Origin: a candidate division FCPU426 bacterium
GTDB lineage: Bacteria > Oederibacteriota > PGYV01 > Palsa-1178
Length of the DNA stretch: 64,000 bases
Direction of reading: 5' to 3'
Assembly (NCBI GenBank): GCA_963840035.1
Contig: CAWIXE010000002.1
Location: 1,120,001-1,184,000 of the forward strand
Positions 7,465-40,568 of this stretch are shown here, in pieces (positions within the stretch are counted from its first letter, which is position 1; every line of letters starts with the position of its first letter). A program made the position numbers and the translations under genes. Under the pieces are notes generated by a model. It saw nothing but the letters and a program-made list of their open reading frames with translations. It was not told the DNA's origin and ran no database searches.

Positions 7465-7775
7465 CGGATGTTCGGCTGCTCCGATTTTTGGCGGAGCCTT
7501 TCCTTTTTTACAAATCCAGAACAAGAACAAAACAACATTCGATAGCCGAACAGCCGAGGAGTCGACCGCAGCCGAACTTTGGTGTTGTCGACTGCTCGGC
7601 TTTCGGATGTTCGGCTGCTCCGATTTTCGGCGGAGCCTTTCCTTTTTACAAATCCAGAACAAGAACAAAACAACATTCGATAGCCGAACAGCCGAGGAGT
7701 CGACCGCAGCCGAACTTTGGTGTTGTCGACTGCTCGGCTTTCGGATGTTCGGCTGCTCCGATTTTTGGCGGAGCC
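7465..7775. repeat. Tandem repeat of ~138-139 bp x ~2.25, each unit with inverted 8-mer-periodic arms
   Basis: CGGATGTTCGGCTGCTCCGATTTT starts at 7465, 7604 and 7742; units nearly identical. Confidence 0.95.
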
Positions 7776-7783
7776 AAAAATCA

Positions 7784-7857
7784 TGGCTGCCCGGGGTGGA
7801 TTCGAACCACCATAGGGAGCTTCAAAGGCTCCAGTCTTGCCATTGGACGACCGGGCA
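7784..7857 (-). tRNA. tRNA-Gln(TTG)
   Basis: TGCCCGG acceptor stem, anticodon arm GGAGC-CTTTGAA-GCTCC, GGTTCGAATCC T-arm, encoded CCA; 74 nt. Confidence 0.96.
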
Positions 7858-8115
7858 ACTAAAAACAAATTTACTATTTTCAATTTTCTATTTTAAATTA
7901 AGATACTGTTCAAATCGACAACATTATACAACAAACAGCAATACAATAAAATATTTAATTTTACATTTTGGTTTCAGGATTTGCATTGCGGAACAGGCTG
8001 GTTTGCACACGTTTTAAACAAATATCCATACACATATTCCCTGTTAGCACAGGAGACTCTAAACGGAGTACCTATATCCCTGCCGGCTTTTTTACGGCCG
8101 GCTGGAATATGGTTA

Positions 8116-8406
8116 TTAGTTTGCCCTGGTATCGCTTGCCTGCAGGGTTTCGTGGAATTTATCAAGGACCTTGACTTCTATCGACTTCCTCATTTCGTTG
8201 TTCAGAGGATGAGCGATATCCTTGAACGTTCCGTCAGACAATTTCCTGCTTGGCATAACAACAAAAAGCCCGTTCTTACCGTCTATCACTTTTAAGCCCC
8301 TTACTACAAACGAGCCGTCAAAAGTGATACTGGCATACGCTTTCAGCTTCTGGTCCTCTGAATCGCTTGTGCCCCTTGGAAAAACTTTTACCTCTGTGAT
8401 TTCCAT
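8116..8406 (-). CDS. spoVG: Septation regulator SpoVG
   Basis: MEITEVKV, LKAYASITFD, GLFVVMPSRK, FKDIAHP; GGAGG SD. Confidence 0.95.
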   Translation of the reverse strand: MEITEVKVFPRGTSDSEDQKLKAYASITFDGSFVVRGLKVIDGKNGLFVVMPSRKLSDGTFKDIAHPLNNEMRKSIEVKVLDKFHETLQASDTRAN

Positions 8407-8428
8407 GTACCGACGCCTCCTTGGATAA

Positions 8429-9277
8429 TTAAATCGAGCGCGCAAGGCATATAAAACTGCCTTTCCACTCCCGGCTTACCTTCTTAAGACACTTTAAAGC
8501 CCCCATTCTGTCCTTAAAGAGAGCAAATACAGCGCTCCCACTCCCGCTCAGAGATGAATCAAGACAGCCGTGCCTCAAGAAACTTTCCTTAATTCTTAAC
8601 AAAATCGGAAATTTACCATAAACTACAGGCTCAAAATTATTATACAAGAACCCGCAGTCATCTTTCTTATTCCTGCTGTTAATTATAGTATATGATTTGT
8701 CATTTGTCAAATTTGTTTGCGCGTCAAACCATTTATAAGCGTCTTTTGTGGCTATTTTTATCGCTTTATGGACTATAATAACGAACCAGAACGGCTTTTT
8801 TACCTTTAAAACCCTTATTTTCTCGCCTTTTCCTGAAACAAACGCCCTCTTTTGATATATGAAAAACGGCACGTCAGACCCTATTTTTCGGGCTGTTTTT
8901 GCCATTTCAGCAGAGCTTAACCTCAGCTTAAAAATCCTGTTTATGGCAAGTATAACTGTTGCCGCATCCGAACTCCCGCCGCCCAACCCTGCTCCGTTGG
9001 GTATGTATTTATAAAGCGTGACTTTTACACCCTTACTGATACCGTACTTTTTCATCATCAACATGGCTGCTTTGTATACTATGTTCTTTTCCTGAGGCAG
9101 TTTCAATGTGTTAAATTTATCCACTACCTCGACGCCTGCCCGGGTAATCTCAATATCAAGCTCGTCAAAGAGGGATACAGGCTCAAAGACAGACTCAAGA
9201 AAATGATAGCCGTCTTTTTTATCTTTTTTCCCGATGTTCAATACCAGGTTTAATTTCGCCGGCGCGAAAAACCTCAT
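8429..9277 (-). CDS. ispE: 4-diphosphocytidyl-2-C-methyl-D-erythritol kinase
   Basis: APAKLNL, IP.GAGLGGGSSDAA, GSDVPFF, SGSGS. Confidence 0.95.
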   Translation of the reverse strand: MRFFAPAKLNLVLNIGKKDKKDGYHFLESVFEPVSLFDELDIEITRAGVEVVDKFNTLKLPQEKNIVYKAAMLMMKKYGISKGVKVTLYKYIPNGAGLGGGSSDAATVILAINRIFKLRLSSAEMAKTARKIGSDVPFFIYQKRAFVSGKGEKIRVLKVKKPFWFVIIVHKAIKIATKDAYKWFDAQTNLTNDKSYTIINSRNKKDDCGFLYNNFEPVVYGKFPILLRIKESFLRHGCLDSSLSGSGSAVFALFKDRMGALKCLKKVSREWKGSFICLARSI

Positions 9278-11019
9278 GGCTTTTTGTCCCCGTTCTTTAT
9301 CAGTTCAATCTTCTTGAGAATATCTTCCTTTGTCTCCGCACCGGCGCCTATAGCCTTTTTGTAATACTCCCTGGCTTTTTCAGGCTGACTGAGTTTTACA
9401 TAAGTATCCGCTATGTGTTCATATATAACCGGATCGCCCTTGCCTATGCCCTTTTCTTTCTCCACCACCGCTTCAGCGGTTATAAGCTGTTTTAAGGCGC
9501 TGTCATACTCGCCTTTCTGATAATAAACCCAGCCCATGCTGTCCATGAAAAAGCCGTTGTCTTTTTCAATATCAAGCGCGGCCTGCACAAGCGCCGCGGC
9601 CTCTTCAAGGTTTTTGCCCTGGTCAGCGTATGTGTAGCCTATGTAGTTATATGCCTCCGCGTTCTTCGGGTTCATCTTAAGGACTTCCCTGAATTCGGCT
9701 ATTGACGCGTCGTAGTTTTTCATTTTGTCATAAGTGATTGCCAGGGTAAAATGCAGTTTTTCCGATTTCGGAAACTTCTTAATGGCGTTAAGATATACAT
9801 TCACCGCCTCATCATACCGCTTCTCGTCGTAATACGCGGCGGCAAGCGCGGCGTGAAAATCCTCATCCTCGGAATTTTCCTCAAGCTTTGATTTCAATAG
9901 CTCTATGGCTTTTGCTGCCCTGCTTGTTTCCGTATAAATGTAACTTATGTGGTATAAAGCGTTGGTAAATTTAGGGTCCAGTTTCAGCGCTTCATTGAAC
10001 TTATCAATTGCCTTTTCATACTGCTTCTTCTCTTCGAGCGCCAGCCCTCCGTAATACCTTGCCATTTTATCGTCCGGCTTGGCTTTTTCAGCCTTTAAAA
10101 ACTGCTCCGCGGCTTCATCTAACTTTCCCGCTTTAAGGTAAATAAGCCCCAGCGATGTGACTATCTGAATATCATCGCCGTCCTTTTTAAGTATCTGCCT
10201 GTATGATTTAATGGCCAGGTCAAGCTGGTTTTCCTTGTAATAAATATCGCCTACATACCGCAGCGCCTGCTTGTCGTCCGGCCGCAGCTGAAGGTAGTCT
10301 TCATATGTGCTGATGGCCATCTTATTGTCGCCCGTTATCTCATATACCCCGGCTAAAGCAGAATATGCCTTAAGGTATAAGGGGTCTTTTTCAAGTGATT
10401 TTCTGAAATACTCCGCTGCTTTTTCATAATTTTCCCTGCCCGCGAATAAAAGCCCGATGTTGTAATAGGCGGCAGACGTGTCAGGCGCTATCGCTATGTT
10501 CTTTAAGAACATTGATTCCGCGTCATCCATCTTCTCCTGCTTGAAAAACACCACACCCAGATAAAAGTAGGCGTCAGCAATCGTCGAGTCTATGCTTAAA
10601 GCCCTTTCAAAAAGCTGCCTGGCTTCGGCATAATCGCCTGTTTCCAGTTTTATCCTGCCGGCCATGATGAGTATGTCGGTATTATACGGGTCGTCTTTTA
10701 AGCCCTTTTCTATGGTGTCTTTCATTCCCGGATTATCGCCCTTAAGTCCGAACAGATACGCAAGCTGCGTATACACGGGGCCGGGCGCATAGGAGTATTT
10801 GGCGCTGATGTTATAGTATTCCATGGCGTAATCAGGCTCCTCCGCGAGTTCAAAGAGATAGCCAATTCCGTAATACAGATAAGATATGGCTTCCTGGTAT
10901 GGGTTTTTATCGATCTCAGGGCGTTCTGTATTCTTGGTGTCCAGATAAATTTTATTTGAGGCGCAGCCGGTAAAGAGCAATACAAATATCAGGATTGACA
11001 GTGCGGGAATTTTTTTCAT
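9274..11019 (-). CDS. TPR-repeat lipoprotein
   Basis: Lipobox FTGC; many TPR units; AYNYIGY...DSMGWVYY typical of TPR proteins upstream of ispE. Confidence 0.88.
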   Translation of the reverse strand: MKKIPALSILIFVLLFTGCASNKIYLDTKNTERPEIDKNPYQEAISYLYYGIGYLFELAEEPDYAMEYYNISAKYSYAPGPVYTQLAYLFGLKGDNPGMKDTIEKGLKDDPYNTDILIMAGRIKLETGDYAEARQLFERALSIDSTIADAYFYLGVVFFKQEKMDDAESMFLKNIAIAPDTSAAYYNIGLLFAGRENYEKAAEYFRKSLEKDPLYLKAYSALAGVYEITGDNKMAISTYEDYLQLRPDDKQALRYVGDIYYKENQLDLAIKSYRQILKKDGDDIQIVTSLGLIYLKAGKLDEAAEQFLKAEKAKPDDKMARYYGGLALEEKKQYEKAIDKFNEALKLDPKFTNALYHISYIYTETSRAAKAIELLKSKLEENSEDEDFHAALAAAYYDEKRYDEAVNVYLNAIKKFPKSEKLHFTLAITYDKMKNYDASIAEFREVLKMNPKNAEAYNYIGYTYADQGKNLEEAAALVQAALDIEKDNGFFMDSMGWVYYQKGEYDSALKQLITAEAVVEKEKGIGKGDPVIYEHIADTYVKLSQPEKAREYYKKAIGAGAETKEDILKKIELIKNGDKKP

Positions 11020-11025
11020 TATGAT

Positions 11026-11475
11026 CTACCTGTCTTCAAATTTTTTGTCTGTAAGCCGGAGCCTCTTATTGATTATCTTAAGAAGTGCCATCAGTATTTT
11101 TGCGGCTATTTTTGGATCGGAGTCAAGTATCTCTACGAAGCTTTTCTTGGTGACAACGACAAGTTTTGAATCCGCGGAAGTTTTTCCCGAAGCCGTCCTG
11201 GGGCCCGCGTCTATCAGGGACATTTCCCCAACCACTTCACCCGGGGTTAAGACCGCGATAACTTCCTCGCCATCTTTTGTCTTTTTTGATATTTCCACAC
11301 TTCCCTCAGTTACTATATAAAGGACTTCACCGGGCATCCCCTCAACAAACAGGGTCGAACCCTTTTTATAATCCTTCTCAAATATCCTTCTTGTGACAAT
11401 ATCAAGTTCCGCGTCGTTCATATCCTTAAAGAGTATGAGGTTTTTTAATTTATCATAATTCAGCTGCTCGGGCAT
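11026..11475 (-). CDS. Stand-alone cyclic nucleotide-binding domain protein
   Basis: LFVEG.PG..LYIV..G.V, GEMSLID.GPRTAS; no HTH. Confidence 0.88.
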   Translation of the reverse strand: MPEQLNYDKLKNLILFKDMNDAELDIVTRRIFEKDYKKGSTLFVEGMPGEVLYIVTEGSVEISKKTKDGEEVIAVLTPGEVVGEMSLIDAGPRTASGKTSADSKLVVVTKKSFVEILDSDPKIAAKILMALLKIINKRLRLTDKKFEDR

Positions 11476-11537
11476 GTTTCTTGATTACCTCCTGGAGATA
11501 ATAACACACTTAATTTGTTTTTGGCGTTTGCGCCTAT

Positions 11538-11616
11538 TTCGGACTGTTGATCGTAGATTGCGGATTATAAGTTAACCTGCCATTTAATCCGCATTCGTAA
11601 ATCTACTATCTTCAAT
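11538..11616. repeat. Inverted heptamer-periodic element (family D)
   Basis: TTCGGAC TGTTGAT CGTAGAT TGCGGAT TA ... TAATCCGCA TTCGTAA ATCTACT ATCTTCA. Confidence 0.6.
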
Positions 11617-12431
11617 TACAATTGTATCTCCCAGCCTTCCTGGACGCAGTACGCTTTTTCATATTTGGCCTGGGCTTTTCTCTGTATGTCGTCGACAAAG
11701 GCATCGTCGTGTTCCGGCGCGTGGTGGCACAGGTGGAGCTCTTTGGCGCCGGATAACTGGGCTACCTTAATGCCCTCTTCATAAGTGGAATGGCCCCAGC
11801 CAACGTATTTCGGGTATTCTTCCGGGGTAAAATGGGCGTCATAAAAAAGTATATCCGCGTTCTTTGCTATTTCAATGAGCTTATTGTCAGGCACCGCGTA
11901 ATGTTCAATGTCAGTGGCGTAAACAAAAACGCCTGATTTTGCCTCAACCCTGTATACCATCATGCCGCCGGGGTGGTTTATCTTTACGGAATTAATCCTG
12001 AATGGGCCTATATTGATTTCCTCTTTTTCCTTTATCTCATTAAACGAAAATTTAGCGAGCATGCCTGAGAGTTCCACCGGAAAATTGATGAATTCCTGCT
12101 GGCGTTTTAAAACATCAAGGACTGTTTTATTGTATTTGGATTCGCCATATATGTTAATTTCATTGCCTTTGATGAAACCGGGCGCAAAAAAAGGAAAACC
12201 CTGGAGGTGGTCCCAGTGATAGTGGGAAAAAAGCATGTTCAGTTTGTGCCCTGTCGGCCCGCTTTCTTTCATTAAGTCCCTGCCAAAATTGCGCAGGCCC
12301 GTGCCCGCGTCAAGTATAAGTTTTGTATTGGCTTCTTCAAGGACTACGCATGTGGTATTTCCGCCGTATTTTACAGTATCTTTACCGGCTACAGGGATTG
12401 AACCTCTGACTCCGTAATATTTTATCTTCAT
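11616..12431 (-). CDS. MBL-fold metallo-hydrolase
   Basis: GVRGSIP...YGGNTTC, DAGTG, SHYHWDHLQG, WGHS, HHAPEH. Confidence 0.9.
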   Translation of the reverse strand: MKIKYYGVRGSIPVAGKDTVKYGGNTTCVVLEEANTKLILDAGTGLRNFGRDLMKESGPTGHKLNMLFSHYHWDHLQGFPFFAPGFIKGNEINIYGESKYNKTVLDVLKRQQEFINFPVELSGMLAKFSFNEIKEKEEINIGPFRINSVKINHPGGMMVYRVEAKSGVFVYATDIEHYAVPDNKLIEIAKNADILFYDAHFTPEEYPKYVGWGHSTYEEGIKVAQLSGAKELHLCHHAPEHDDAFVDDIQRKAQAKYEKAYCVQEGWEIQL

Positions 12432-12445
12432 AAGCCCCCACTGAT

Positions 12446-12548
12446 CAATTTTCAATTTTATATTTTCAATTTTCAATTAAGGAAAAAAGTCCTTAATTCA
12501 CTGCAATTTCTCTGTTATTTTTAATTGAAAATTCAAAATTGTAAATTA
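12446..12548. repeat. Inverted heptamer-periodic element (family A)
   Basis: CAATTTT CAATTTT ATATTTT CAATTTT CAATTAA -40 nt- TTAATTG AAAATTC AAAATTG TAAATTA. Confidence 0.9.
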
Positions 12549-12564
12549 ACGTATTATAACTCAC

Positions 12565-14634
12565 TTATCCTATATTTATCAAGTCAAAACTGGAACCGTA
12601 CTTTTGTTTTATTATACGGACTAATTGTTCCTTTTCGCTGTGATTTAGGTCACACTCACCTGAAATAACTGAGAATGCAGCCTGCCTGGCCTCATCCAAT
12701 TCCTTTTTATCCCTTATAATACTGGCTATTTTAAACTCTGTCACGCCATGCTGCCTTGTTCCCATGAATTCACCCGGACCCCTGATTTCAAGGTCAGCTT
12801 CGGATATTTTGAAGCCATCCTGAGTGGCCGCCATTATACCGAGCCTTTTAAAACTGTCCTCAGTCCTGGCATCCCCGACTAAAACGCAATAAGACTGCGC
12901 AGACCCTCTTCCGACCCTGCCCCTTAACTGATGGAGCTGTGAGAGGCCGAACCTTTCGGCGTGTTCTATCACTATGACCGAAGCTTCAGGCACATCCACC
13001 CCGACTTCTATTACCGTCGTGGCGACAAGTATGTCTATGGAGCCATCCTTAAAACTTTTCATGGCTTCGTCACGCTCTTCCTTTTTCATTTGTCCGTGTA
13101 TAAGGGATATTTTATAATCCTTGAACCTCTTTGACCATTCTTTTTCCATCTCAATGGCGGATTTAAGGTCAAGTTTTTCCGATTCATCCACAAGCGGATA
13201 AACCGCGTATACCCGCGCTTTTTCCTTAAGCCTCTCTTCTATAAATGAAAACATCTTAAAGACTTCAGCCGACTCAAAGATCATGGTCTTGACCGGTTTC
13301 CTGCCGGGCGGCAGCTCGTCTATCACTGAAATATCCGTATCGCCGTAAACAGAGAGCGTCAGCGTCCTGGGTATGGGCGTGGCCGTCATGATAAGCGAGT
13401 GCGGAAGGGTTTCTGATTTTTTCAGCAGCGCGGCCCTTTGCATGACGCCGAAGCGGTGCTGCTCGTCAATAACCACAAGGCCGAGTTTTTTAAAAACGAC
13501 ATCATCCTGTATGAGCGCGTGCGTGCCTACGAGTATCTGTATTTTCCCGTCCTTAAGGGCTTCTATGATATCATCCCTGTTTGATTTTTTGATTCCACCC
13601 AGAAGCAGCTCCGCCTTTATCCCCGTTCCTTCAAGGACCTTTTGCATGTTTGCGGCGTGTTGTACAGCCAGTATTTCGGTTGGTGCCATAATGGCCGACT
13701 GATATCCGTTCTCAGCCGCCATTACGCATGCCGCGAGCGCGACAATTGTTTTGCCTGAACCCACGTCCCCCTGTACGAGCCTGTTCATGGGTTTTCCCGA
13801 TGAAAAATCAGTTTGTATCTCATCAAGCACCTTTTTTTGCGCGCCTGTGAGAGTGAATGGCAGGTTTTTAATGAAACCGGAAAATAGGGGCCCGCCGGGC
13901 TTTAATATGATTCCGGGTTCTTCCTTTATCCGGCTCTTCCTCATGGCAAAGGCAAACTGCAGGAAAAAGAACTCGTCGAATATAAGGCGCCTTTTTGACT
14001 TTTCCAGGAGGTCAAAGGACTCCGGGTAATGGACGTTATAAACCGCGTCATTAAGCTTTATAAGGCTGTATTTTTTTGCGATTGCCTCCGGCATGTATTC
14101 TTCCAGCGATTTCAGGTGGTTGTCTATGGCGAACTTTATGATCTTCCTGAACTGCTTCTGCGATAAGCCATCAGTCAGCGGGTAAACCGGAACTATCCTG
14201 TTTACATTTACGCTCTCATCCGGGTCAGTGCCGTCGTCGGTTATCTCATACTCGGGCGTGCCTATCTGCAGCATGGACCTGTAGGCTTCCACCCTTCCGT
14301 GAAATATTACCTGCATTCCCTTTTTAAATATCTTTTCTATGTATGGCTGGTTGAACCAGACGCCGGTTATAAATCCTGTTTCGTCTTTTATGGTAATATT
14401 GGTGATTTTCAGCCTGGGCCTTAACTGCTTTGAATCCGCGGCGATTACAGTGCCCGAGACTGTTTCCAGTTCCCCTGTTGTGACCGAGGATATTTTTTTA
14501 ACATTCGACCTGTCCACCCATGTGCGGGGAAAATAATACAGCAGGTCAAACACCGTTTTAACCCCGAGCTTTTCAAGCAGCCTGGCCCTCTCCGGGCCCA
14601 CGCCTTTTATGTACTGGATTTCCTTATCAAGCAT
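12565..14634 (-). CDS. recG: ATP-dependent DNA helicase RecG
   Basis: QGDVGSGKT, DEQHRFG, MTATPIPRT, QLRGRVGRG. Confidence 0.97.
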   Translation of the reverse strand: MLDKEIQYIKGVGPERARLLEKLGVKTVFDLLYYFPRTWVDRSNVKKISSVTTGELETVSGTVIAADSKQLRPRLKITNITIKDETGFITGVWFNQPYIEKIFKKGMQVIFHGRVEAYRSMLQIGTPEYEITDDGTDPDESVNVNRIVPVYPLTDGLSQKQFRKIIKFAIDNHLKSLEEYMPEAIAKKYSLIKLNDAVYNVHYPESFDLLEKSKRRLIFDEFFFLQFAFAMRKSRIKEEPGIILKPGGPLFSGFIKNLPFTLTGAQKKVLDEIQTDFSSGKPMNRLVQGDVGSGKTIVALAACVMAAENGYQSAIMAPTEILAVQHAANMQKVLEGTGIKAELLLGGIKKSNRDDIIEALKDGKIQILVGTHALIQDDVVFKKLGLVVIDEQHRFGVMQRAALLKKSETLPHSLIMTATPIPRTLTLSVYGDTDISVIDELPPGRKPVKTMIFESAEVFKMFSFIEERLKEKARVYAVYPLVDESEKLDLKSAIEMEKEWSKRFKDYKISLIHGQMKKEERDEAMKSFKDGSIDILVATTVIEVGVDVPEASVIVIEHAERFGLSQLHQLRGRVGRGSAQSYCVLVGDARTEDSFKRLGIMAATQDGFKISEADLEIRGPGEFMGTRQHGVTEFKIASIIRDKKELDEARQAAFSVISGECDLNHSEKEQLVRIIKQKYGSSFDLINIG

Positions 14635-14649
14635 TTATTGCCCCTTATC

Positions 14650-16749: not shown

Positions 16750-16757
16750 TGTTTGTA

Positions 16758-17858: not shown

Positions 17859-17953
17859 GTGTTCCCTCCAGCATTTTGGAATAATTTTGTTAAGTAAATT
17901 AATGTAATGATAATATCATAATACGGAATATTAGACAAGGGATTTATGAACGC

Positions 17954-18054
17954 TAATTGTATATTTTCAATTTTAAATTTTCAATTAAACCCGCCGCAAT
18001 TAACTGCTGTTTCTCGCTATTAATTGAAAATTGAAAATACAGAATTGAAAATTC
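17954..18054. repeat. Inverted heptamer-periodic element (family A)
   Basis: TAATTGT ATATTTT CAATTTT AAATTTT CAATTAA -31 nt- TTAATTG AAAATTG AAAATAC AGAATTG AAAATTC. Confidence 0.9.
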
Positions 18055-18132
18055 AATGATATTTTAGTTGAATTTATACCCAAAATGCCCTAAAATTATA
18101 TCTGTTTTTCAATTCATCCAAAGAGGTGCCAC

Positions 18133-27082: not shown

Positions 27083-27159
27083 CAGATAAGAACAGTTTGA
27101 AGTTTTTAGTTTTTAGATTAGTTCTAAACCATCTTAAAACTTAAAACTGCCTTTATCTG
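27083..27159. repeat. Inverted heptamer-periodic element (family B)
   Basis: CAGATAAG..CAGTTTG AAGTTTT TAGTTTT TAGAT ... ATCTT AAAACTT AAAACTG..TTTATCTG. Confidence 0.85.
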
Positions 27160-27161
27160 TC

Positions 27162-27544: not shown

Positions 27545-27623
27545 GCGTTCGGAGTTCGGAGGGTAAGGTTCGGAGTTCGATCGAAATCAAAAAGATCGAA
27601 CTCCGAACCCCGAACTCCACCCT
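27545..27623. repeat. Inverted heptamer-periodic element (family C)
   Basis: GCGTTCG GAGTTCG GAGGGTA AGGTTCG GAGTTCG ATC ... GAT CGAACTC CGAACCC CGAACTC CACCCT. Confidence 0.85.
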
Positions 27624-27629
27624 GATTTT

Positions 27630-28424: not shown

Positions 28425-28450
28425 AAGCGCTCCTTCAAGTAGATTAGAGA

Positions 28451-28514
28451 CAGTTTGAAGTTTTTAGTTTTAAGACGGTTTTGTAGTAATCTTAAAACTT
28501 CAAACTTAAAACTG
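28451..28514. repeat. Inverted heptamer-periodic element (family B)
   Basis: CAGTTTG AAGTTTT TAGTTTT AAGAC ... ATCTT AAAACTT CAAACTT AAAACTG. Confidence 0.85.
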
Positions 28515-28527
28515 CCCCTATCAGTTT

Positions 28528-29649: not shown

Positions 29650-29670
29650 ATATTACTCCTTGGGGGGTGT

Positions 29671-29694
29671 GGGCGATTCATGAATCGCCCCTAC
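29671..29694. repeat. GTAG-type REP-like palindrome
   Basis: GGGCGATTCATGAATCGCCCCTAC. Confidence 0.7.
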
Positions 29695-29724
29695 AACTAC
29701 AGCATGCTATTATCGGTAAAAAAA

Positions 29725-31293
29725 CTATTTACCTTTAAGCAGTTTATATTCTACCGAATCAACCAGCGCAAGCCAGCTTGCTTCTATAATGTTTTCAGAA
29801 ACACCAACGGTCGTCCAGACATCCTTTTTATCCGAACTCTCAATTAACACCCTTACTTTCGCGCTCGTTCCTTCCTCGCCTTCTATGACGCGCACCTTAT
29901 AGTCAACCAGGTGCATGTCTTTTATGGCGGGATAAAATTTAATAAGAGCTTTGCGGAGCGCGTTATCAAGCGCGTTTACAGGTCCGTCGCCTTCTGCGGC
30001 GGTGTGTTCCAGCTTATCCTTAACTTTTATCTTTATCGTGGCCTCGGAAAAAAGCGTTCCCGCTTTGTCCTCAACAATAACCCTTAAGCCTTTAAGCTCA
30101 AAAAAGGGCTTATATTTTGAGAGGTTTTTCTTAAGGAAGAGGTTTAAAGACGCGTCAGCGCCTTCAAACTCATAGCCGTCTTCCTCCATCTTTTTTATCT
30201 TGGAAAGGAACTCTTTTGTCCGCGGGTCATCCTTTTCAAGCTTGATGCCCCACTGTTTGGACTTAAATAACAGGCTTGATATGCCCGCCTGGTTGGTAAC
30301 CGGAATCTGCCTTACATTGCCGACAAGCTCCGGCTTCATGTGCTCGTATGCCCGTTCATCTTTCATCATGGCATCAGCGTGTACTCCTGCTTTGTGTGTG
30401 AACGCGCTTTTTCCAACATACGGCTGGCTGTCCATGGGCGATATATTCGCCACTTCATAAAAGTAATGCGCGCTTTCCATGAGCTTGTTTATCTGTTTTA
30501 CGGGTATGGTTTCATAACCCATTTTAAGCGTCAGGGCGGGTATGAGCGAAACCAGGTTCATGTTTCCTGTCCTTTCGCCAAATCCGTTCATGGTACCCTG
30601 GACATGCGTAAATCCGTTTTCAACGGCTATTATGGCGTTGGCTACAGCCAGGTCGGAATCATTATGAGTGTGTATGCCGAGTTTTGTCTTTATCTTTGAA
30701 AAAACGTCCTTTGTTATCGCGTCCATCTCCGATGTAAGCGTCCCGCCGTTTGTGTCGCAAAGGCAGATACAGTCGGCGCCCGCCGCTTCAGCGGCCTTAA
30801 TGCATTTTAAAGCGTATTCAGGGCTGTCCTTGTAGCCGTCAAAAAAGTGCTCCGCGTCAAATACAACTTCTTTCTTGTGGTCTTTTAGATAGGAGACCGA
30901 TTCCTTAATAAGGATTATATTTTCTTCAGGCGAAATCTTCAGCACTTTTTCCGCATGAAGCGTCCATGCCTTTCCGAAAATGGTCACAGTTTCCGTTCCC
31001 GCCTCAAGAAGCGAATTCAGGATAAGGTCGTCTTTTACCGTGGATTTTGCCCTGCGGGTGGAACCAAAGGCGGCAACTTTGGAGTTCTTCAGCTTTAGTT
31101 TTTTTACGCGCTTAAAGAATTCCGAATCAAGTGAGTTCATCCCTTTTACAGGCCATCCGCCTTCTATATATGACATGCCCATTTCATCCAGTTTTTTGGC
31201 AAGCAGGAGCTTATCCTCCAGCGAGAAGGATATTTTCGGGCTCTGCGCCCCGTCCCGGAGCGTTGTGTCGTATATGTCAATTTTTCTTTTCAT
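29725..31293 (-). CDS. cimA: Citramalate synthase
   Basis: DTTLRDGAQ, EGGWP, FDAEHFFDG, HTHND, HKAGVH, GDGPVNALD, WTTVGVSENII. Confidence 0.92.
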   Translation of the reverse strand: MKRKIDIYDTTLRDGAQSPKISFSLEDKLLLAKKLDEMGMSYIEGGWPVKGMNSLDSEFFKRVKKLKLKNSKVAAFGSTRRAKSTVKDDLILNSLLEAGTETVTIFGKAWTLHAEKVLKISPEENIILIKESVSYLKDHKKEVVFDAEHFFDGYKDSPEYALKCIKAAEAAGADCICLCDTNGGTLTSEMDAITKDVFSKIKTKLGIHTHNDSDLAVANAIIAVENGFTHVQGTMNGFGERTGNMNLVSLIPALTLKMGYETIPVKQINKLMESAHYFYEVANISPMDSQPYVGKSAFTHKAGVHADAMMKDERAYEHMKPELVGNVRQIPVTNQAGISSLLFKSKQWGIKLEKDDPRTKEFLSKIKKMEEDGYEFEGADASLNLFLKKNLSKYKPFFELKGLRVIVEDKAGTLFSEATIKIKVKDKLEHTAAEGDGPVNALDNALRKALIKFYPAIKDMHLVDYKVRVIEGEEGTSAKVRVLIESSDKKDVWTTVGVSENIIEASWLALVDSVEYKLLKGK

Positions 31294-31299
31294 TTATGC

Positions 31300-31470
31300 C
31301 TACTTTAAAGTAAATTTTAAGACCACATACAATATGCCTAAGATCACATAAATTACGGCAAGCACTTTGAGGTGCCATGCCATGGAAAATTCCGCGTCAG
31401 CTTTTTTTGCCTTAACCTCGGGCGCGGGCGCCTGTGGCTGTGTTTCCTGATTTTCTGCTGTATTATCCAT
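31300..31470 (-). CDS. Small single-pass membrane protein (56 aa), not in ORF track
   Basis: GGAGGT SD before ATG; MDNTAENQETQPQAPAPEVKAKKADAEFSMAWHLKVLAVIYVILGILYVVLKFTLK; fills the lysC-cimA gap. Confidence 0.75.
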   Translation of the reverse strand: MDNTAENQETQPQAPAPEVKAKKADAEFSMAWHLKVLAVIYVILGILYVVLKFTLK

Positions 31471-31501
31471 GTTACCTCCGTGGGCTTTTTAAGGCCTCAA
31501 A

Positions 31502-32740
31502 CTACTTTTCAGAAACAGCTTTTTTCTTTCCCAGTTTGAAGGCATTGTGAAGCACTTTTACGGCCTCTTCAACCTGGTCTTCCCTGACAACAACAGAAAT
31601 CTTAATTTCAGAAGTGGATATCATTTCAATATTGATCTTCTTGTCAGCCAGGGCTTTGAACATGGCCGACGCTATGCCGGTATGCGTCCTCATGCCGACT
31701 CCGACCGCCGACACTTTGCCGATAGCCTCATCCATGAAATAACCTTTTGCCCCGGTTTTTTTCACGATGGACTCGATTACTTTCTTCGCCTTGGCGGCGT
31801 CTTTCCTGATGACGGTAAACGAAATGTCCGTTGAGCCCTGATCAGAAACGTTCTGGATTATCATGTCGACATTAACATCACCGTCAGCAAGCTGGCTGAA
31901 CACAAGCGCAGCCACTCCGGGTTTATCAGGCACGCCTTTTAACGTTATCTTTGCTTCCTTTTTGTTGTATGTAATTCCGCTTACCACTATCTTTTCCATT
32001 TTTGAATCCTCCTGTTTGATTATTGTTCCCTGTTCGTCGGTAAATGTGCCCCTCACGTGAAGGACCACACCGTAATTCTTTGCAAATTCAACGCTCCTGT
32101 TATAAAGCACCTGCGCGCCGCCGCTTGAAAGCTCAAGCATTTCGTCGTATGAAAGAAAATCTATTTTCCTGGCGTCTTTGACCAGCTCGGGGTTCGTGGT
32201 CATAACACCCGGCACATCCTTTAAGAACTCGCACACATCGGCTTTTATGGCTGTTGCAAGCGCCACGGCAGTCAGGTCCGAACCGCCCCTTCCGAGAGTT
32301 GTTACTTCATCGCTGTCGGTTATGCCCTGGAATCCGGCCACTATGCAGATGTTACCCTGCTTTAAAGCTTCTTTTATCTTATACGCGCCTTTTATGTCAA
32401 GTATCCTGGCTTTGGTGTGTTTTGTATCTGTCATAATACCGAGCTGGGCGCCTGTGAATGATTTTGCCTTGAAACCTTTTTCTATCAGGGCCATTGACAT
32501 TAAGGCTATGGACTGCTGTTCTCCCGTGGCCATTAGCATGTCAAGTTCCCTGGAATCCGGCTCTTTGGCCAGCTTTTCCGCGAAATCAATGAGATTGTCC
32601 GTGGTATCCCCCGGGGCGGATACGACCACAACCATCTGATTTCCTTTTTTCTTCTCCCTTATGATCCTGTCCGCCACAAAAAGCATCTTCTCCGGCGTAG
32701 CCAGTGAAGCCCCGCCGTACTTCTGCACTATTAAAGCCAT
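31502..32740 (-). CDS. lysC: Aspartate kinase
   Basis: VQKYGG, VVVSA, TTLGRGGSD, two ACT domains, ISTSEIKIS. Confidence 0.96.
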   Translation of the reverse strand: MALIVQKYGGASLATPEKMLFVADRIIREKKKGNQMVVVVSAPGDTTDNLIDFAEKLAKEPDSRELDMLMATGEQQSIALMSMALIEKGFKAKSFTGAQLGIMTDTKHTKARILDIKGAYKIKEALKQGNICIVAGFQGITDSDEVTTLGRGGSDLTAVALATAIKADVCEFLKDVPGVMTTNPELVKDARKIDFLSYDEMLELSSGGAQVLYNRSVEFAKNYGVVLHVRGTFTDEQGTIIKQEDSKMEKIVVSGITYNKKEAKITLKGVPDKPGVAALVFSQLADGDVNVDMIIQNVSDQGSTDISFTVIRKDAAKAKKVIESIVKKTGAKGYFMDEAIGKVSAVGVGMRTHTGIASAMFKALADKKINIEMISTSEIKISVVVREDQVEEAVKVLHNAFKLGKKKAVSEK

Positions 32741-32776
32741 GTTCCAATTTCCTCCTGATGAATTTATAATTTTAGT

Positions 32777-33961: not shown

Positions 33962-33988
33962 AAGGTTCCTTTAAATTAGATTTAAGTT

Positions 33989-34062
33989 CAGTTTCGAGTT
34001 TCGAGTTTTAAGTTTTAAGATAAATCAAACGCCCTCATCTTAAAACTTTAAACTTAAAACTT
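33989..34062. repeat. Inverted heptamer-periodic element (family B)
   Basis: CAGTTTC GAGTTTC GAGTTTT AAGTTTT AAGAT ... ATCTT AAAACTT TAAACTT AAAACTT. Confidence 0.88.
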
Positions 34063-34072
34063 CTCAATCTTC

Positions 34073-35245: not shown

Positions 35246-35252
35246 ATCCTCC

Positions 35253-36320
35253 CTATTTTTCAATTATCTTCATTATGGATTTTAAGTCCGGTTTAACCAC
35301 TATCGGCTTGAACTCGACGCTTTTAATGGCCCTATCCGGGTCCTTAAGCCCGTGCCCTGTAAGGACGCAGACTATTTTAACCGTTTTCTTTTCCTTAAAG
35401 AACTTCTTCTTCCCGTATTTTATAAGCCCCGCCACAGACGCGGCAGAACCCGGCTCGCAAAAAATGCCTTCCTTTGAAGCCAGCAGAGTGTATGCATTGA
35501 TGATTTCTTTATCGGTTACCATGTCTATGACTCCGCCTGAATCATCCCTTGCGGCTTCAGCCTGTTTCCAGCTGGCAGGATTTCCTATCCTTATGGCCGT
35601 GGCGACTGTCTCCGGGTTTTCAACAGGGTGCCCGAGCACTATCGGAGCCGAACCCGCCGCCTGGAATCCCATCATCTTCGGGAGTTTCTTGTTCTTTCCC
35701 GCTTTTTTGTACTCTGTATAACCTTTCCAGTACGCGGTGATATTGCCGGCGTTGCCCACAGGTATAAAATGATAATCCGGCGCTTCACCAAGATAGTCCA
35801 CAACTTCAAACGCCCCTGTCTTCTGACCTTCAATGCGGTATGGGTTGAGCGAGTTTACAAGCTCTATGGGGTACTTTTCGCATATCTGTTTTACCATCTC
35901 AAGGGCCACGTCAAAATTGCCTTCAACAGCTATTACTTTTGACCCGTGTATAAGCGCCTGTGAAAGCTTTCCTAACGCTATGTATCCATTGGGAATAATT
36001 ACATAACTTATCATCCCGGCGCGCACCGAATAAGCAGCCGCCGAAGCTGAAGTATTTCCCGTAGAGGCGCAGATGGTGGCTTTCATGCCCTTTTCTTTTG
36101 CCTTTGAAATAGCCATGGTCATTCCGCGGTCCTTAAATGACCCGGTCGGGTTTAACCCCTCGTATTTGACGTATACCTCGACGTTTTCAGCAACCATTTT
36201 TTCAATCTTCGGCACCCTGATAAGCGGGGTATTGCCTTCCTGAAGCGACACGACCGGTGTCGACTTTGTAACCGGCAGGAACTTTCTGTATTTCTCTATA
36301 AGGCCTTTGTAGGGTTCCAT
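35253..36320 (-). CDS. thrC: Threonine synthase
   Basis: EGNTPL, NPTGSFKDRG, CASTGNTSAS, PVGNAGN, TGHGLKD. Confidence 0.96.
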   Translation of the reverse strand: MEPYKGLIEKYRKFLPVTKSTPVVSLQEGNTPLIRVPKIEKMVAENVEVYVKYEGLNPTGSFKDRGMTMAISKAKEKGMKATICASTGNTSASAAAYSVRAGMISYVIIPNGYIALGKLSQALIHGSKVIAVEGNFDVALEMVKQICEKYPIELVNSLNPYRIEGQKTGAFEVVDYLGEAPDYHFIPVGNAGNITAYWKGYTEYKKAGKNKKLPKMMGFQAAGSAPIVLGHPVENPETVATAIRIGNPASWKQAEAARDDSGGVIDMVTDKEIINAYTLLASKEGIFCEPGSAASVAGLIKYGKKKFFKEKKTVKIVCVLTGHGLKDPDRAIKSVEFKPIVVKPDLKSIMKIIEK

Positions 36321-36335
36321 TTAAAACTCCTTTTT

Positions 36336-36443
36336 AGTCTCAATGATCTCAATAATCTCATGAGTCTCAATAGTCCGCCTGATCAAAACACAAGCCCCGC
36401 CTTTACTTCTGAGACTTCTGAGATCATTGAGATTATTGAGACT
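36336..36443. repeat. Inverted nonamer-periodic element (family E)
   Basis: AGTCTCAAT GATCTCAAT AATCTCATG AGTCTCAAT ... TCTGAGACT TCTGAGATC ATTGAGATT ATTGAGACT. Confidence 0.9.
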
Positions 36444-36454
36444 GCATTTAAAAA

Positions 36455-37753
36455 CTAATCTACCACCCTGTACATAACCGTCTTCTCTTTTACAACCTTC
36501 ATGGCATCTATCTTTTTCAGGGCTTTCTTCAACCCGGCTTCTTTTGCCGCGTAGGTCATGATGACAACCGGGACTTTCGCGTGCTGCGACTGTATCTTCT
36601 GTATGACTGATTCAATGCTTATGCCGTTCTTCCCGAGTATGCCCGCGATTGTCGCGAGGACGCCGGGTTTGTCAACCACGTTAAAACGCAGATAATACTT
36701 TGAAGTGATCTCGCCCGCTTTGGTTATCACAACCGGCTTTGAAACAGCTGCCGGCTTTTTGATCCCGGTTTCCATGCCGTGCGAAATATTCCTGGCGATA
36801 TAAATAATGTCGGACAAAACAGCGGACGCAGTGGGCATTTCACCCGCGCCCCTTCCGTAAAATAAAGTTTCGCCGACCGCGTCGCCTTTTAAATATATGG
36901 CGTTAAATTCATAATTAACGGAAGCCAATAAATGCTTTTTATTTACAAGCGCGGGATGCACCCTTATGTTGACGCTGTTTCCATCTTTCTCCGCGATAGC
37001 CAGCAGCTTCATCACATAGCCAAACTCGTCGGCGTATTGTATGTCGGTATAGTTAACCGAAGTGATACCTTCGACAGGCACATCCGATTCTTTAATCCTT
37101 GTGCCGAATGCCATGGAAGACAGTATTACAATCTTGTGCATGGTGTCAAAGCCTTCTATGTCAAGTGTCGGGTCTGCTTCGGCAAAACCTTTAACCTGCG
37201 CTTCCTTAAGGGCGGTCTCAAAAGGCAGCCTGTCAAAAGTCATTTTTGTAAGTATGTAATTGCAGGTACCGTTTAAAATCGCCATGATTTTTTCTATCCT
37301 GTTTGCCGCAAGCCCCTTATCCATGCCGCGCAGTATGGGTATGCCTCCGCCCACCGACGCCTCAGCCATAATTTCGACTTTATTCTCGGACGCCGCAAAC
37401 GCTATCTCGTCCCAGTATTTTGATAAAAGCGCCTTGTTCGCCGTCACAACATGCTTGCCGGCATTTAACGCCCTGAGCACAAAATCATAAGCGGGTTTGT
37501 AACCGCCGATAAGCTCAATGACTATATCTATTTCAGGGTCATTAATAATGTCATTAATGTCTGACGTAAGCATTTCTTTAGGGACTTTTACCCCGCGGTC
37601 GGTCTTAATATCAATATCACATATCTTTTTCAATTCTACCTTTATCCCGGATTTGCCGTCAATGATGGCTCCGGAATTCTGAAAAAGTTTAACTACTCCT
37701 TTTCCAATGGTTCCAAAACCTATCAGGCCGACTTTGACTGATTTCTTTTCCAT
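36455..37753 (-). CDS. hom: Homoserine dehydrogenase
   Basis: GFGTIG, VVTANKA, EASVGGGIP, NGTCNYIL, AEADPT.D, C-terminal ACT. Confidence 0.96.
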   Translation of the reverse strand: MEKKSVKVGLIGFGTIGKGVVKLFQNSGAIIDGKSGIKVELKKICDIDIKTDRGVKVPKEMLTSDINDIINDPEIDIVIELIGGYKPAYDFVLRALNAGKHVVTANKALLSKYWDEIAFAASENKVEIMAEASVGGGIPILRGMDKGLAANRIEKIMAILNGTCNYILTKMTFDRLPFETALKEAQVKGFAEADPTLDIEGFDTMHKIVILSSMAFGTRIKESDVPVEGITSVNYTDIQYADEFGYVMKLLAIAEKDGNSVNIRVHPALVNKKHLLASVNYEFNAIYLKGDAVGETLFYGRGAGEMPTASAVLSDIIYIARNISHGMETGIKKPAAVSKPVVITKAGEITSKYYLRFNVVDKPGVLATIAGILGKNGISIESVIQKIQSQHAKVPVVIMTYAAKEAGLKKALKKIDAMKVVKEKTVMYRVVD

Positions 37754-37888
37754 GTTAACCTCGCTTCATATTCAAAAAAGCAGTAATATAACGTATCAAA
37801 TCAGGCATAAACATACCTGACGACGCCTTATTTTACTCTCTTTAAAAGGAAACAAAACATCATTTTTCCCTTTTTTTATAAGTGTTTA

Positions 37889-37917
37889 ATTATATTATCG
37901 GGGTTTAAAAAAGTCAA
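37889..37917 (-). promoter_or_regulatory. Sigma70-type promoter of hom operon
   Basis: TTGACT-17-TATAAT. Confidence 0.7.
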
Positions 37918-37922
37918 GAACC

Positions 37923-38008
37923 GAATTTTCAATTTTCAATTTAATATTTTCAATTAAAGGCCTTAGCTGGCATTTAATTGAAAATTGAAAATATAAAATT
38001 GAAAATAC
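37923..38008. repeat. Inverted heptamer-periodic element (family A)
   Basis: GAATTTT CAATTTT CAATTTA ATATTTT CAATTAA -16 nt- TTAATTG AAAATTG AAAATAT AAAATTG AAAATAC. Confidence 0.9.
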
Positions 38009-38073
38009 ACCCCCTGCCCTTGCCCTCCACCCCACATTATGCTATCATTAATAAGACCATTTTAGGAGGTTAT

Positions 38074-38814
38074 ATGCTCGAAATTACGGACCTTTGCGTT
38101 GAAATAAACGGCATTAAAGTGCTTAAATCCATTAATATTACCATCCCGGACGGTGAAACGCACATACTTTTCGGGCCTAACGGCTCAGGTAAGACTTCCC
38201 TTCTTATGACCATTATGGGTTATCCCCAGTATAAGGTAACCGGCGGGTCCATAAAGCATAACGGGGTGGAATTAACCTCCCTTCCGGTAAATGAGCGCGC
38301 CGCGTCAGGTATAGGGCTGTTCTTCCAGCGCCCCCCTTCCATAAAAGGGATAAAGCTTTCCCAGATGTCCGACATTATCAGCGGCAGAAGCGGTGTAAAA
38401 CTGGACTCTACTGTTGCCGCAAAGGCTCTGAACCTGGAATACCTGATGCCGAGGGATGTAAACCACGGATTTTCAGGGGGCGAGATAAAACGCTCCGAGC
38501 TCCTGCAGCTTTTCGCGCAGAAACCCGGCTTTATCATGCTTGACGAACCCGAATCAGGGGTTGATATAGAGAACATGAAGCTTATCGGCGGAAAGATAAG
38601 GACCCTGCTTGAACGCGGCCTTGAAAAGAAACAACGCTCAAAGAGCGCTCTTATCATAACCCACACGGGTTACATCATGGACTATGTGGACGCCGACGCC
38701 GGTTATACCCTTTTAGACGGCACCATCAAGTGCAGGCATGACGCGAGGAAACTTTTTGAGGACATACAATTACACGGATTCAGGGAGTGTGGCGCATGCA
38801 AAGACATAAAATAG
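38074..38814 (+). CDS. SufC-like ABC ATPase (SmsC type)
   Basis: GPNGSGKT, FQRPP, GFSGGE.KRSE, DEPESGVD, ITH; C-terminal C-x17-CxxC; AGGAGG SD. Confidence 0.9.
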   Translation: MLEITDLCVEINGIKVLKSINITIPDGETHILFGPNGSGKTSLLMTIMGYPQYKVTGGSIKHNGVELTSLPVNERAASGIGLFFQRPPSIKGIKLSQMSDIISGRSGVKLDSTVAAKALNLEYLMPRDVNHGFSGGEIKRSELLQLFAQKPGFIMLDEPESGVDIENMKLIGGKIRTLLERGLEKKQRSKSALIITHTGYIMDYVDADAGYTLLDGTIKCRHDARKLFEDIQLHGFRECGACKDIK

Positions 38815-39905
38815 AAGTTGATGAAAAAGACGAATCAAAGATAGAACGCTCCGGCATAAACCTTGACGAACAGGGCCGCAGCGGCTCTTTTGTGATGGCA
38901 AACAACCATGTCACCCATGTGACCATGCGGCAGGATGGCGTGGAAATGCTCCCCATCCACGACGCTTTGAAAAAATACCCGGAATTCTCGGATAAGATGT
39001 GGACTCTTGTCAATAAAGACAAGGACGAATACACAAAAGACGCTTACGCCGACACGCAGTCAGGGTACTTCATCCGCATAAAAGCCGGTGTAAAAGCGTT
39101 AATGCCTTTTCAGGCGTGTTTTTTTGTAAAACAGGACAAATTCAAGCAGAAAGTGCATAACCTGATAATTCTTGAGGAAGGCTCTTCCCTTCACATCATT
39201 AACGGCTGCGCAGCCGCTAATTACCTCGCGGAAGGCTCCCACATCGGAGTCACGGAAATGTTTGTCGGGAAAAACGCGCACTTAATGTACACGATGATAC
39301 ACGACTGGGCAAAAAATGTCGAGGTCAGGCCGCGTTCGGCCATCATCGTTGATGAAGGCGGTTCATATATATCAAATTATGTGGCGCTTCGCGACACAAA
39401 AATCACCCAGATGTACCCTACCGCGACACTCGCGGGCAAAGGCGCGGTCGCCAAATTTAATTCACTTGTGCTGGCGCCCGAGGGCTCTGTTTATGACCTT
39501 GGCGCAAGGGTCCTTTTAAACGCCGAGAACACCAGGGCCGAGATAATCAGCAGGTCAATATCTGACGGCGGCGACATCATAGCCCGCGGCCACCTCGAGG
39601 GCAACTCCCCTAAAGTCTTTGCGCACCTGGAATGCGACGGCCTGATGCTAAAAGACAAAGGCTTGATATCCGCGATACCGGAGCTCACTACAAAATATGC
39701 CGATGTAAATATGTCACACGAAGCTGCCATAGGAAAAATTGACGAGGAACAAATCATGTACTTAATGTCAAGGGGCATCCCAAAACCCGACGCGATATCC
39801 GCCATAGTCAGCGGTTTCATGGACGTAAAGATATTCGGCCTGCCGGAAGCGCTTGAGGAAGAGATAAATAAGAATATAAAGACGCTGGGTAAGGGAAGCC
39901 TTTAG
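38796..39905 (+). CDS. SufB/SufD family Fe-S scaffold (SmsB type)
   Basis: HNLIILEEGS.LHIINGC, AEIISR, HLEC.GL, AIPEL, SHEAAIGKI. Confidence 0.9.
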   Translation: MQRHKIEVDEKDESKIERSGINLDEQGRSGSFVMANNHVTHVTMRQDGVEMLPIHDALKKYPEFSDKMWTLVNKDKDEYTKDAYADTQSGYFIRIKAGVKALMPFQACFFVKQDKFKQKVHNLIILEEGSSLHIINGCAAANYLAEGSHIGVTEMFVGKNAHLMYTMIHDWAKNVEVRPRSAIIVDEGGSYISNYVALRDTKITQMYPTATLAGKGAVAKFNSLVLAPEGSVYDLGARVLLNAENTRAEIISRSISDGGDIIARGHLEGNSPKVFAHLECDGLMLKDKGLISAIPELTTKYADVNMSHEAAIGKIDEEQIMYLMSRGIPKPDAISAIVSGFMDVKIFGLPEALEEEINKNIKTLGKGSL

Positions 39906-39907
39906 AA

Positions 39908-40016
39908 CAATTTTCTATTTTGAATTTTCAATTTTCTATTAAAAATCAAAAAGGGCGGAACACATCCGCCCTTTTGTCATTTTCGCATTTAATTGAAAAT
40001 AGAAAATTTAAAATTA
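39908..40016. repeat. Inverted heptamer-periodic element (family A) enclosing a terminator
   Basis: CAATTTT CTATTTT GAATTTT CAATTTT CTATTAA -46 nt- TTAATTG AAAATAG AAAATTT AAAATTA. Confidence 0.88.
39948..39975. terminator. Bidirectional intrinsic terminator
   Basis: AAAAAGGGCGGA-ACACA-TCCGCCCTTTT between convergent genes. Confidence 0.85.
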
Positions 40017-40472
40017 TCTGTAAAACTTCACCACATGCGTATGCGTCAGCGCTTCCGCGCTGTCGTCTTCTTTCCTTACGCCGAGGATTATGAGCGTGTT
40101 TTTGGGGAATTTCACTCCCTGGAGCTCTTTTCTTATGAGGATGTTCATAACGTCGTCCTGCACCCTGTTGTCGCTTAAGTGGAACTCGCGCAGGTATACG
40201 ATGAAACCGTTGGGGTGCTTGCCTTCAAATGCCTCTTTTAGCCATTCGGGCGGTTTGCAGTCTTTCATTTTCATGCATCCCAGCTCGTTGTGTTCCAGGG
40301 TGCTTAAATCCTTGTCAATTAACTTTCTGCCGGTCTCATTGCTCACTTCAACAAGTATCTTATGGACCGTATCGCGCTGGTCGTGAAAGAGTATGATATC
40401 ACCCGGATCATGGGTGGTACAGGCACGCATGAAATACTTCTTCATCTCTTCATTACTTTTCATCAGATGCAT
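40014..40472 (-). CDS. Hypothetical protein, degenerate AAA+-like fragment
   Basis: PPEW...GFIVYLREF...VQ...MNIL......G.K.PKNTLIILG resembles an AAA_5/MoxR core without intact Walker motifs. Confidence 0.6.
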   Translation of the reverse strand: MHLMKSNEEMKKYFMRACTTHDPGDIILFHDQRDTVHKILVEVSNETGRKLIDKDLSTLEHNELGCMKMKDCKPPEWLKEAFEGKHPNGFIVYLREFHLSDNRVQDDVMNILIRKELQGVKFPKNTLIILGVRKEDDSAEALTHTHVVKFYR

Positions 40473-40482
40473 TTTTTACCCC

Positions 40483-40568
40483 TGATTTTAAATTTTCAAT
40501 TTTAAATTTTCAATTAAAGACTTTTCCGGTAAGTTAATTGAAAATTGAAAATATAAAATTGAAAATCC
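40483..40568. repeat. Inverted heptamer-periodic element (family A)
   Basis: TGATTTT AAATTTT CAATTTT AAATTTT CAATTAA -16 nt- TTAATTG AAAATTG AAAATAT AAAATTG AAAATCC. Confidence 0.9.

Follow-up and report, generated by a model that had tools for sequence, protein, structure and literature searches.

Inverted pairs of heptamer arms dispersed through a candidate division FCPU426 genome and their possible link to FHB proteins

A 64,000-nucleotide stretch of DNA from a candidate division FCPU426 bacterium (the window, C2:1120001-1184000 of genome G000, which spans 3.46 Mb and is 98.3% complete) carries short intergenic elements, each built of two inverted arms of tandem 7- to 9-mers about a spacer. 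The phenomenon is real and in part already described; its link to four-helix-bundle (FHB) genes (PF05635/TIGR02436, S23p/Avd-like), the five-core count of the arms, the lone arms and the classes of target go beyond that description. In our judgement the balance is about even that the elements are dispersed, lineage-specific repeats, gene-less derivatives of FHB cassettes, with arms that would be read by a cognate FHB pentamer at one core per protomer. To the reading step taken by itself, a predicted recognition, we give the same even chance.

Periodic paired arms in the window and across the genome

The eleven paired elements listed by an earlier, sequence-only reading of the window were all found where it had placed them and with the words it gave (Table 1), and its 8-mer form is present as an inverted pair in tandem. 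It had overlooked the adjoining tRNA-Gln, the FHB gene and a lone family A arm. Each of the twelve stretches (the eleven pairs, plus a unit of the 8-mer) folds into a long beaded stem, with z of -3.6 to -8.5. Co-directional junctions hold eight of the pairs; two (17954, 37923) separate divergent genes and one (39908) convergent genes. The pattern claimed for co-directional junctions, one arm near the upstream stop and the other near the next Shine-Dalgarno sequence, holds, with a count of eight rather than seven, but the fit is looser for the D pair at 11538 and the A pair at 12446. At the gathering score tRNA was the only Rfam match in the window, with no CRISPR or known structured RNA.

An inverted-repeat scan of the genome returned 291 periodic elements, 248 with a period of 7 and 13 with one of 9. 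The same scan of two local dinucleotide shuffles gave 0 and 0; the elements are thus not due to chance. Two methods merged gave 300 elements genome-wide. Profiles of 14 word families located 861 arms, against 0 in one shuffle, and 512 of the arms have a partner inside 250 nt, like the terminal inverted repeats of a classical MITE (a miniature transposable element of inverted-repeat type). At least one arm is present in 511 of about 3045 gene junctions. The placement statistics use gene calls from a rough open reading frame (ORF) caller, which mislabels some elements as lying within ORFs. We note that in-frame arms form spurious N-terminal extensions of the ORFs at 11616-12476 and 37978-38814. 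Family A represents a lineage-specific burst, with 197 pattern matches here and 0-5 in each of 30 relatives. A metagenome scan found four loci only, all distant.

In most families the consensus arm holds five cores in about 31 nt: four full units and the opening bases of one more. The profile width was fixed at the five-core length; conservation nonetheless falls sharply in the flanks. When cores were counted with free length in 480 arms, 304 had five, 111 four, 26 six or more and the rest fewer. In family A, 122 of 144 arms are four units plus a core, and 89 of 116 are distinct; ATT, the core, stays intact in 462-464 of 464 units, positions 6-7 being variable. The polarity of the arm is constant within each family (63:1 in family A). 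The consensus arms are periodic and carry no GTAG or CGTC tag, unlike those of repetitive extragenic palindromes (REPs) and REPINs.

Heptamer excess is known in bacteria (as cited in the accessible parts of PMC4692102 and PMC4679880), and long perfect runs occur in genomes G008, G015 and G029. Both would suit simple-sequence repeats arising from polymerase slippage, with hairpins from template switching. In family A (58 of 72 elements kept for the statistics of neighbouring and matched units) identical adjacent units number 46 where 85±5 are expected, triples 0 against 14.5 and perfect quadruples 0 against 6.4; avoidance of identical neighbours is the opposite of slippage. The sharp limit on arm length, the single polarity and the linkage to FHB also speak against it. 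Partner arms are not mutual copies either: their complementarity is 0.823 within elements and 0.814 between elements (p 0.08), and matched units number 1.19 against 1.30 expected. Since partners are no more complementary than strangers, pairing is not compensated and neither arm was copied from the other. A slippage origin is largely refuted for family A, and as a general account we regard it as extremely improbable.

The earlier description of the spacers as unrelated applies to most copies, and no homologous interior is seen in most copies of families A, B, C and E; it fails for AGATTTT and AATTACT, in which a common spacer recurs at distant loci in either orientation to transcription. Spacers can contain terminator-like hairpins, -10-like boxes, REP clusters or genes. 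In two word families they have in common a palindromic TATTATAATA core together with small GTGC-N3/4-GCAC hairpins, and this suggests, on comparison of the copies, that arm words have changed around a conserved interior.

FHB genes and the arms around them

Three of the eight FHB matches in the genome are bracketed by inverted heptamer arms (C1:780720, C1:786256, C2:519646). These filled forms have the PF05635 ORF within an inverted stem, as in rRNA intervening sequences (IVSs); the window copies are gene-less. Two filled cassettes agree in word and polarity with the empty elements of families C and GTGGT (scores 79 and 74; next best below 0). In the window an 8-mer element sits directly upstream of the FHB gene, the predicted product of which matches 2GSC, 2RLD (chains A-E) and Avd by fold. 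One cassette (G000 C1:786256-786699) has its 3' arm within the reading frame, where it supplies the FHB protein's C-terminal tail. A weak, longer FHB match at G000 C2:634464-634673 has no arms, and several relatives show weak matches over the same span of the profile.

Across genomes, 55 FHB loci, a subset of all matches, were examined: 20 have both inverted arms, 12 a single array and 23 neither, while both arms were scored at 9 of 587 size-matched control genes. On viral contigs, judged by eye, 7 of 8 FHB loci have both arms. The number of FHB genes correlates with array load (matches to two five-core patterns and their reversed forms) at Spearman rho 0.75 in 31 related genomes, which as kin are not independent; FHB-free genomes have 0-13 matches and those with at least five FHB genes 15-495. 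A tree was built of 41 FHB proteins, 14 rows having been left out because of stops or length, and its bootstrap did not converge. Three of its clades each share a word or pitch: one with 8-mers, one with TCGGA/ATTT and the tRNA-linked one that includes the window gene. Several branches along which clade and word or pitch agree have good support.

The five-subunit FHB ring would read one core per subunit. Every clade would be specific to a word and a pitch (7, 8 or 9), and would most likely read them on RNA, single-stranded or as a beaded hairpin, as for Avd. FHB would thereby act as a specificity factor, the copying step being performed by another enzyme. Copies with five intact cores would persist and spread, copies with perfect runs would slip out of register and be lost, and either arm could be lost or replaced independently of its partner. 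The idea resembles TRAP, which reads one triplet per subunit. S23p is a toroidal homopentamer (PMC4990558, accessible text), and in Avd a single RNA stem-loop is touched by each of the five protomers, its flipped-out bases lying in the crevices between them (10.1101/2023.10.23.563531, accessible text). A more far-reaching proposal is that the arms belong to mobile elements of a new class. An Avd-like pentamer without catalysis of its own would read the five-core arms, one core per subunit, and direct a host enzyme, which would write arms at 3' boundaries defined by RNA. Depending on FHB clade, these would be stop codons, tRNA trailers or rRNA helices. The single arm would be the unit, pairs would bracket terminators, promoters or host genes, and rRNA IVSs and the heptamer excess would belong to one system. 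We put this forward as a tentative and rather unlikely extension.

A number of observations weigh against the recognition of arms by FHB. The third, ATT-type cassette is ambiguous, since with polarity reversed its arms score higher against A and AGATTTT, and a filled form is absent from this genome for 11 of the 14 families. Of the 55 loci, 35 fall below the two-arm threshold, and the agreement of word with clade could be plain co-inheritance, the genomes being related. Genome G005 has a heptamer pair yet no FHB match, G007 has two FHB matches and none to the two core patterns, and arrays in G008 and G015 extend far past five units. We know of no catalytic activity of FHB. A partner enzyme is not evident: PF00078 (reverse transcriptase) had 0 matches in the 98.3% complete genome, in which template and variable repeats (TR/VR) were not searched for, and none of eight Y1 transposase or three DUF559 genes has these arms as ends. 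Lastly, some copies lie between two divergent promoter-like boxes and, judging from these boxes, are probably untranscribed, which would suit recognition of DNA better than of RNA.

The eight Y1 matches are flanked by GTAG REPs or other terminal inverted repeats. The Y1 transposases of the genome include TIRYT-like and RAYT-like ones, which have inverted repeats or GTAG REPs of their own. Its DUF559 genes come with CCCCTCTCC hairpins, and a GxxExxY-type (PF13366) gene was not found in it.

Placement of the arms and turnover at orthologous junctions

Co-directional junctions hold 222 of the 300 elements, and 197 of these 222 begin within 15 nt of the upstream stop; GTAG REPs of the same genome are anchored to a stop in only 17 of 104 junctions. 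Stop anchoring as a mere by-product of tight junctions was rejected, because 53 of 62 elements with a downstream gap of 60 nt or more still lie at the upstream stop. Arm starts peak at offsets of -2/-1 and +3 to +5 from the stop. Survival at functional borders, such as the -10 box at recG, contributes to the anchoring. This TATAAT box directly follows the recG stop (window 12547-12564) and is kept in five relatives of the same family, the family A element lying just beyond. TGA stops are rarer at elements (10 of 187 against 214 of 1314, p 2e-5), partly because arm ends prefer a stop-like triplet: T-A/G-A is weakly favoured even where no stop is needed (152 against 109±7 of 347).

All loci of the 8-mer family found by BLAST lie just 3' of tRNAs (the one in the window, three more on C1/C2 and another on C3), while only 8 of the 861 main-family arms do so. 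Short-word counts being too unspecific for the tRNA-linked families, BLAST and a listing of tRNA trailers were used. The anchors at stops, tRNAs and rRNA fit recognition of RNA. Some 20 of 45 tRNA genes have an AT-rich hairpin after the 3' end, often followed by a TGG-starting stretch and then a tRNA-specific arm family; by its letters the stretch (window 7776-7790, for example) may complement the 3' end of the tRNA itself.

Unpaired arms number 349. Of these, 55 lie in called ORFs, 66 have a partner that has decayed and 9 stand opposite an arm of another family; the other 219, all intergenic, are partnerless, 71 of them with no space for a partner. Lone arms retain polarity, with a stop at the outer end in 148 and at the inner end in 21. 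An intact lone arm between rplU and rpmA is absent from 12 of 12 relatives. Chimeric pairs are few, and neither of the two tested folds. Most long-range arm pairs were discarded as cross-pairings of neighbouring elements. Long +/- pairs (9) are no commoner than -/+ pairs (21), and systematic capture of genes is thus not supported. Arms do flank ordinary DNA, for example a methyltransferase gene (C2:152130-153030) that is patchily distributed, in 3 of 20 relatives and in none with arms. IS30-like elements (HTH_38 and rve) are inserted within heptamer arms, all three copies of one type in AATTACT arms and two of four copies of another in ATTCTGG-type arms.

The arms might instead be ends of MITE- or REPIN-like elements that an ordinary transposase or nuclease moves in trans, with FHB as no more than a frequent passenger. 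The common spacer of AGATTTT and AATTACT, the arms about the methyltransferase gene, an FHB with no catalysis known to us and the T-A/G-A bias at arm ends agree with this. No transposase gene, however, has the arms as its own ends, the IS30-like copies sitting inside them. Neither a target-site duplication nor a fixed terminal motif is evident in alignments of copies, the compared genomes offering no close empty allele, and a terminal TA duplication was sought and not found. Movement in trans also leaves the five-core count, the enrichment at FHB genes and the correlation with FHB load unaccounted for, and we consider it unlikely.

We rate host selection of the elements as RNA stems, which would punctuate operons through RNase III-type processing or stabilisation like the 23S rRNA IVS stem, as decidedly unlikely. 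The predicted stems are strong, most elements are co-directional, and in Coxiella the IVS, with heptamers beside S23p, is cut by RNase III (PMC4990558, accessible text). The co-directional share of 81% is, however, near the background of 77%, and the missing compensation between partner arms, the 219 partnerless intergenic arms, the chimeric pairs that do not fold, the terminator-like hairpins within spacers, the copies in divergent promoter gaps and the emptiness of junctions in most relatives all run against selection on the stem.

This emptiness was seen on aligning orthologous junctions with genomes of other genera. At murI-queD, 18 of 22 relatives are empty (49 nt or less); two have the 9-mer family E in place of C, and a direct array and a REP occupy the junction in one relative each. 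Of 22 relatives at queD-rph, 15 are empty, three have pairs of another heptamer, and two apiece have different arm-like arrays and different palindromes. Eight relatives were compared at hom-thrC: half of them are empty, and the others have different repeats, one of them a family B element. The words of A and D are absent from ten relatives at two junctions around 11.5-12.5 kb. Across genera the junctions thus show presence, absence and word replacement with no strict conservation.

Sites for host DNA-binding regulators or nucleoid proteins, as suggested for the arrays of Geobacter metallireducens, would account for invariant cores, free spacing positions and constant polarity, as well as for intact lone arms and copies upstream of divergent promoters; such pairs were so interpreted in the accessible text of PMC2700814. 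With at least 14 words in one genome, fast replacement of the word at a single junction, no functional pattern evident among the window genes and linkage to FHB rather than to a regulator, we regard such sites as very improbable. Between the two explanations offered by the sequence-only reading, non-autonomous mobile cassettes and RNA-processing stems, the data back the cassettes, through turnover at junctions, the family A burst and the FHB-filled forms. Stems as the selected unit are weakened by the lack of compensation, by lone and chimeric arms, by terminators in spacers and by promoter-gap copies.

Table 1. Features of the window and related loci elsewhere in genome G000.
Feature	Position	Strand	Remark
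FHB gene (PF05635/TIGR02436, S23p/Avd-like)	7074..7433	-	tRNA-linked clade; gene downstream of repeat element, not inside
8-mer family; about 2.3 tandem copies of an inverted arm pair, at a 138-bp period	7465..7775	-	directly 3' of tRNA-Gln
tRNA-Gln(TTG), anchor of 8-mer element	7784..7857	-	
Lone family A arm	7869..7899	.	upstream of tRNA-Gln
Family D pair	11538..11612	.	first core overlaps stop codon of metallo-beta-lactamase-fold gene
Family A pair, recG junction	12447..12547	.	begins 17 nt past stop, just beyond TATAAT box
Family A pair	17955..18053	.	between divergent ABC ATPase / PBP1A genes
Family B pair	27083..27160	.	queD-rph junction
Family C pair	27545..27626	.	murI-queD junction; cognate FHB-filled form is G000 C1:786168-786699
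Family B pair	28451..28520	.	upstream of murI
Family B pair	33989..34065	.	upstream of phosphoglycerate mutase gene
Family E (9-mer) pair	36336..36443	.	hom-thrC junction; FHB gene with similar arms in relative G008 (L079)
Family A pair	37924..38006	.	hom / sufC gap, flanked by two divergent -35/-10-like boxes; probably not transcribed
Family A pair	39909..40012	.	between convergent stops; terminator-like hairpin in spacer
Family A pair	40484..40567	.	4 nt past a stop, 11 nt ahead of next start
Spacers with TATTATAATA core	G000 C1:689105, C1:775829, C1:780259, C3:38659, C3:39172, C2:845015		
IS30-like insertions in arms	G000 C3:228237-229400, C3:54935, C2:827247, C2:388086, C2:169476		
Y1 / DUF559 loci	G000 C3:278123, C3:318423, C2:583921; C3:356779, C1:355763, C1:7122; C2:390694, C2:1647944		

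Elsewhere in the window, the lysC-cimA gap (31293-31502; L031, L033, L034) holds a short ORF of about 55-60 amino acids that is conserved in relatives. A cluster at 43999-63973 has two radical SAM genes, large unknown ORFs and genes for an AroB-related sugar-phosphate cyclase, an aldolase and a glycosyltransferase. Arm elements went undetected in this 22-kb stretch, which may be a recent acquisition.

Relation to known systems and meaning

The earlier opinion that the elements had not been described as a system needs qualification. The gene-less architecture is in print, in accessible text, for Geobacter, Xanthomonas and the arrays of bioRxiv 10.64898/2026.10.21.760802; as a system linked to a protein it is not. 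Our literature search, which covered little of the subscription literature, found no FHB link to dispersed arms beyond the Coxiella IVS. That of Coxiella burnetii 23S rRNA is alike in having a PF05635 gene in an inverted-repeat stem, a pentameric protein and three to four tandem heptamers (GACAGAT) adjacent (PMC4990558, in the text available). Here, in contrast, there are hundreds of copies, in mRNA junctions, tRNA trailers and promoter gaps, mostly gene-less or single-armed. The 23S rRNA of this genome is a single match spanning 3022 nt with no such element, and the window elements are intergenic.

The paired GGGAATC arrays of Xanthomonas (PMC4692102), located near stops, and the paired hepta- and octamers of four to five units in Geobacter metallireducens (PMC2700814) are likewise inverted pairs at variable distance. 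Across the two, positions near stop codons and between aligned ORFs are reported, with IS elements at Geobacter sites. They were interpreted as G-quadruplexes or regulator sites, and the accessible parts of both papers describe no protein partner or mobility. The present genome differs in having 14 or more words, most incapable of forming a G-quadruplex, and in the tie to FHB. Direct TAACTGA arrays occur in Beggiatoaceae (PMC4679880). Clusters #8,581 and #156,623 of bioRxiv 10.64898/2026.10.21.760802 have period 7/8, a fixed n-mer with a variable 3-mer and a reverse-complement copy after; complementarity is limited to the fixed parts, and neighbours are mostly co-directional. In its accessible portion that work reported no colocalised protein; the present analysis contributes FHB-filled forms, the count of five cores, the lone arms and the classes of target.

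REP/RAYT, TIRtrons (PMC3733652) and the Ssn nuclease with NTS/SRM (PMC11893778) are, in the text available, similar in that a small gene is flanked by a cognate repeat scattered in lineage-specific bursts. Those systems have short GC hairpins and nucleases, whereas here the arrays are periodic and the protein is one for which we know of no catalysis. The REPs of this genome form a separate family, not anchored to stops. The view of the sequence-only reading that the elements are neither REPs nor CRISPR agrees with their untagged periodic arms, the lack of a Y1 gene with such arms and Rfam matches to tRNA only. Avd of diversity-generating retroelements (PMC10053308; 10.1101/2023.10.23.563531) has, in the available text, the same fold and is an RNA stem-loop-binding pentamer serving an enzyme; as stated above, the present genome differs in its lack of a reverse transcriptase match, with TR/VR left outside the search.

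The heptamer excess of many bacterial genomes has no accepted cause, and PF05635 has solved pentamers and no known function. Reading of the arms by FHB would join the two, on the basis of a numerical match (five cores, five protomers) and of clade-specific words. If this is true, the unexplained 7-base repeats of bacteria gain a protein partner, and a pentamer whose word and pitch can change would represent a sequence-specific nucleic-acid reader of a new kind. With arms in one or more copies at so many junctions of this genome, its 3' untranslated regions have been reshaped on a large scale.

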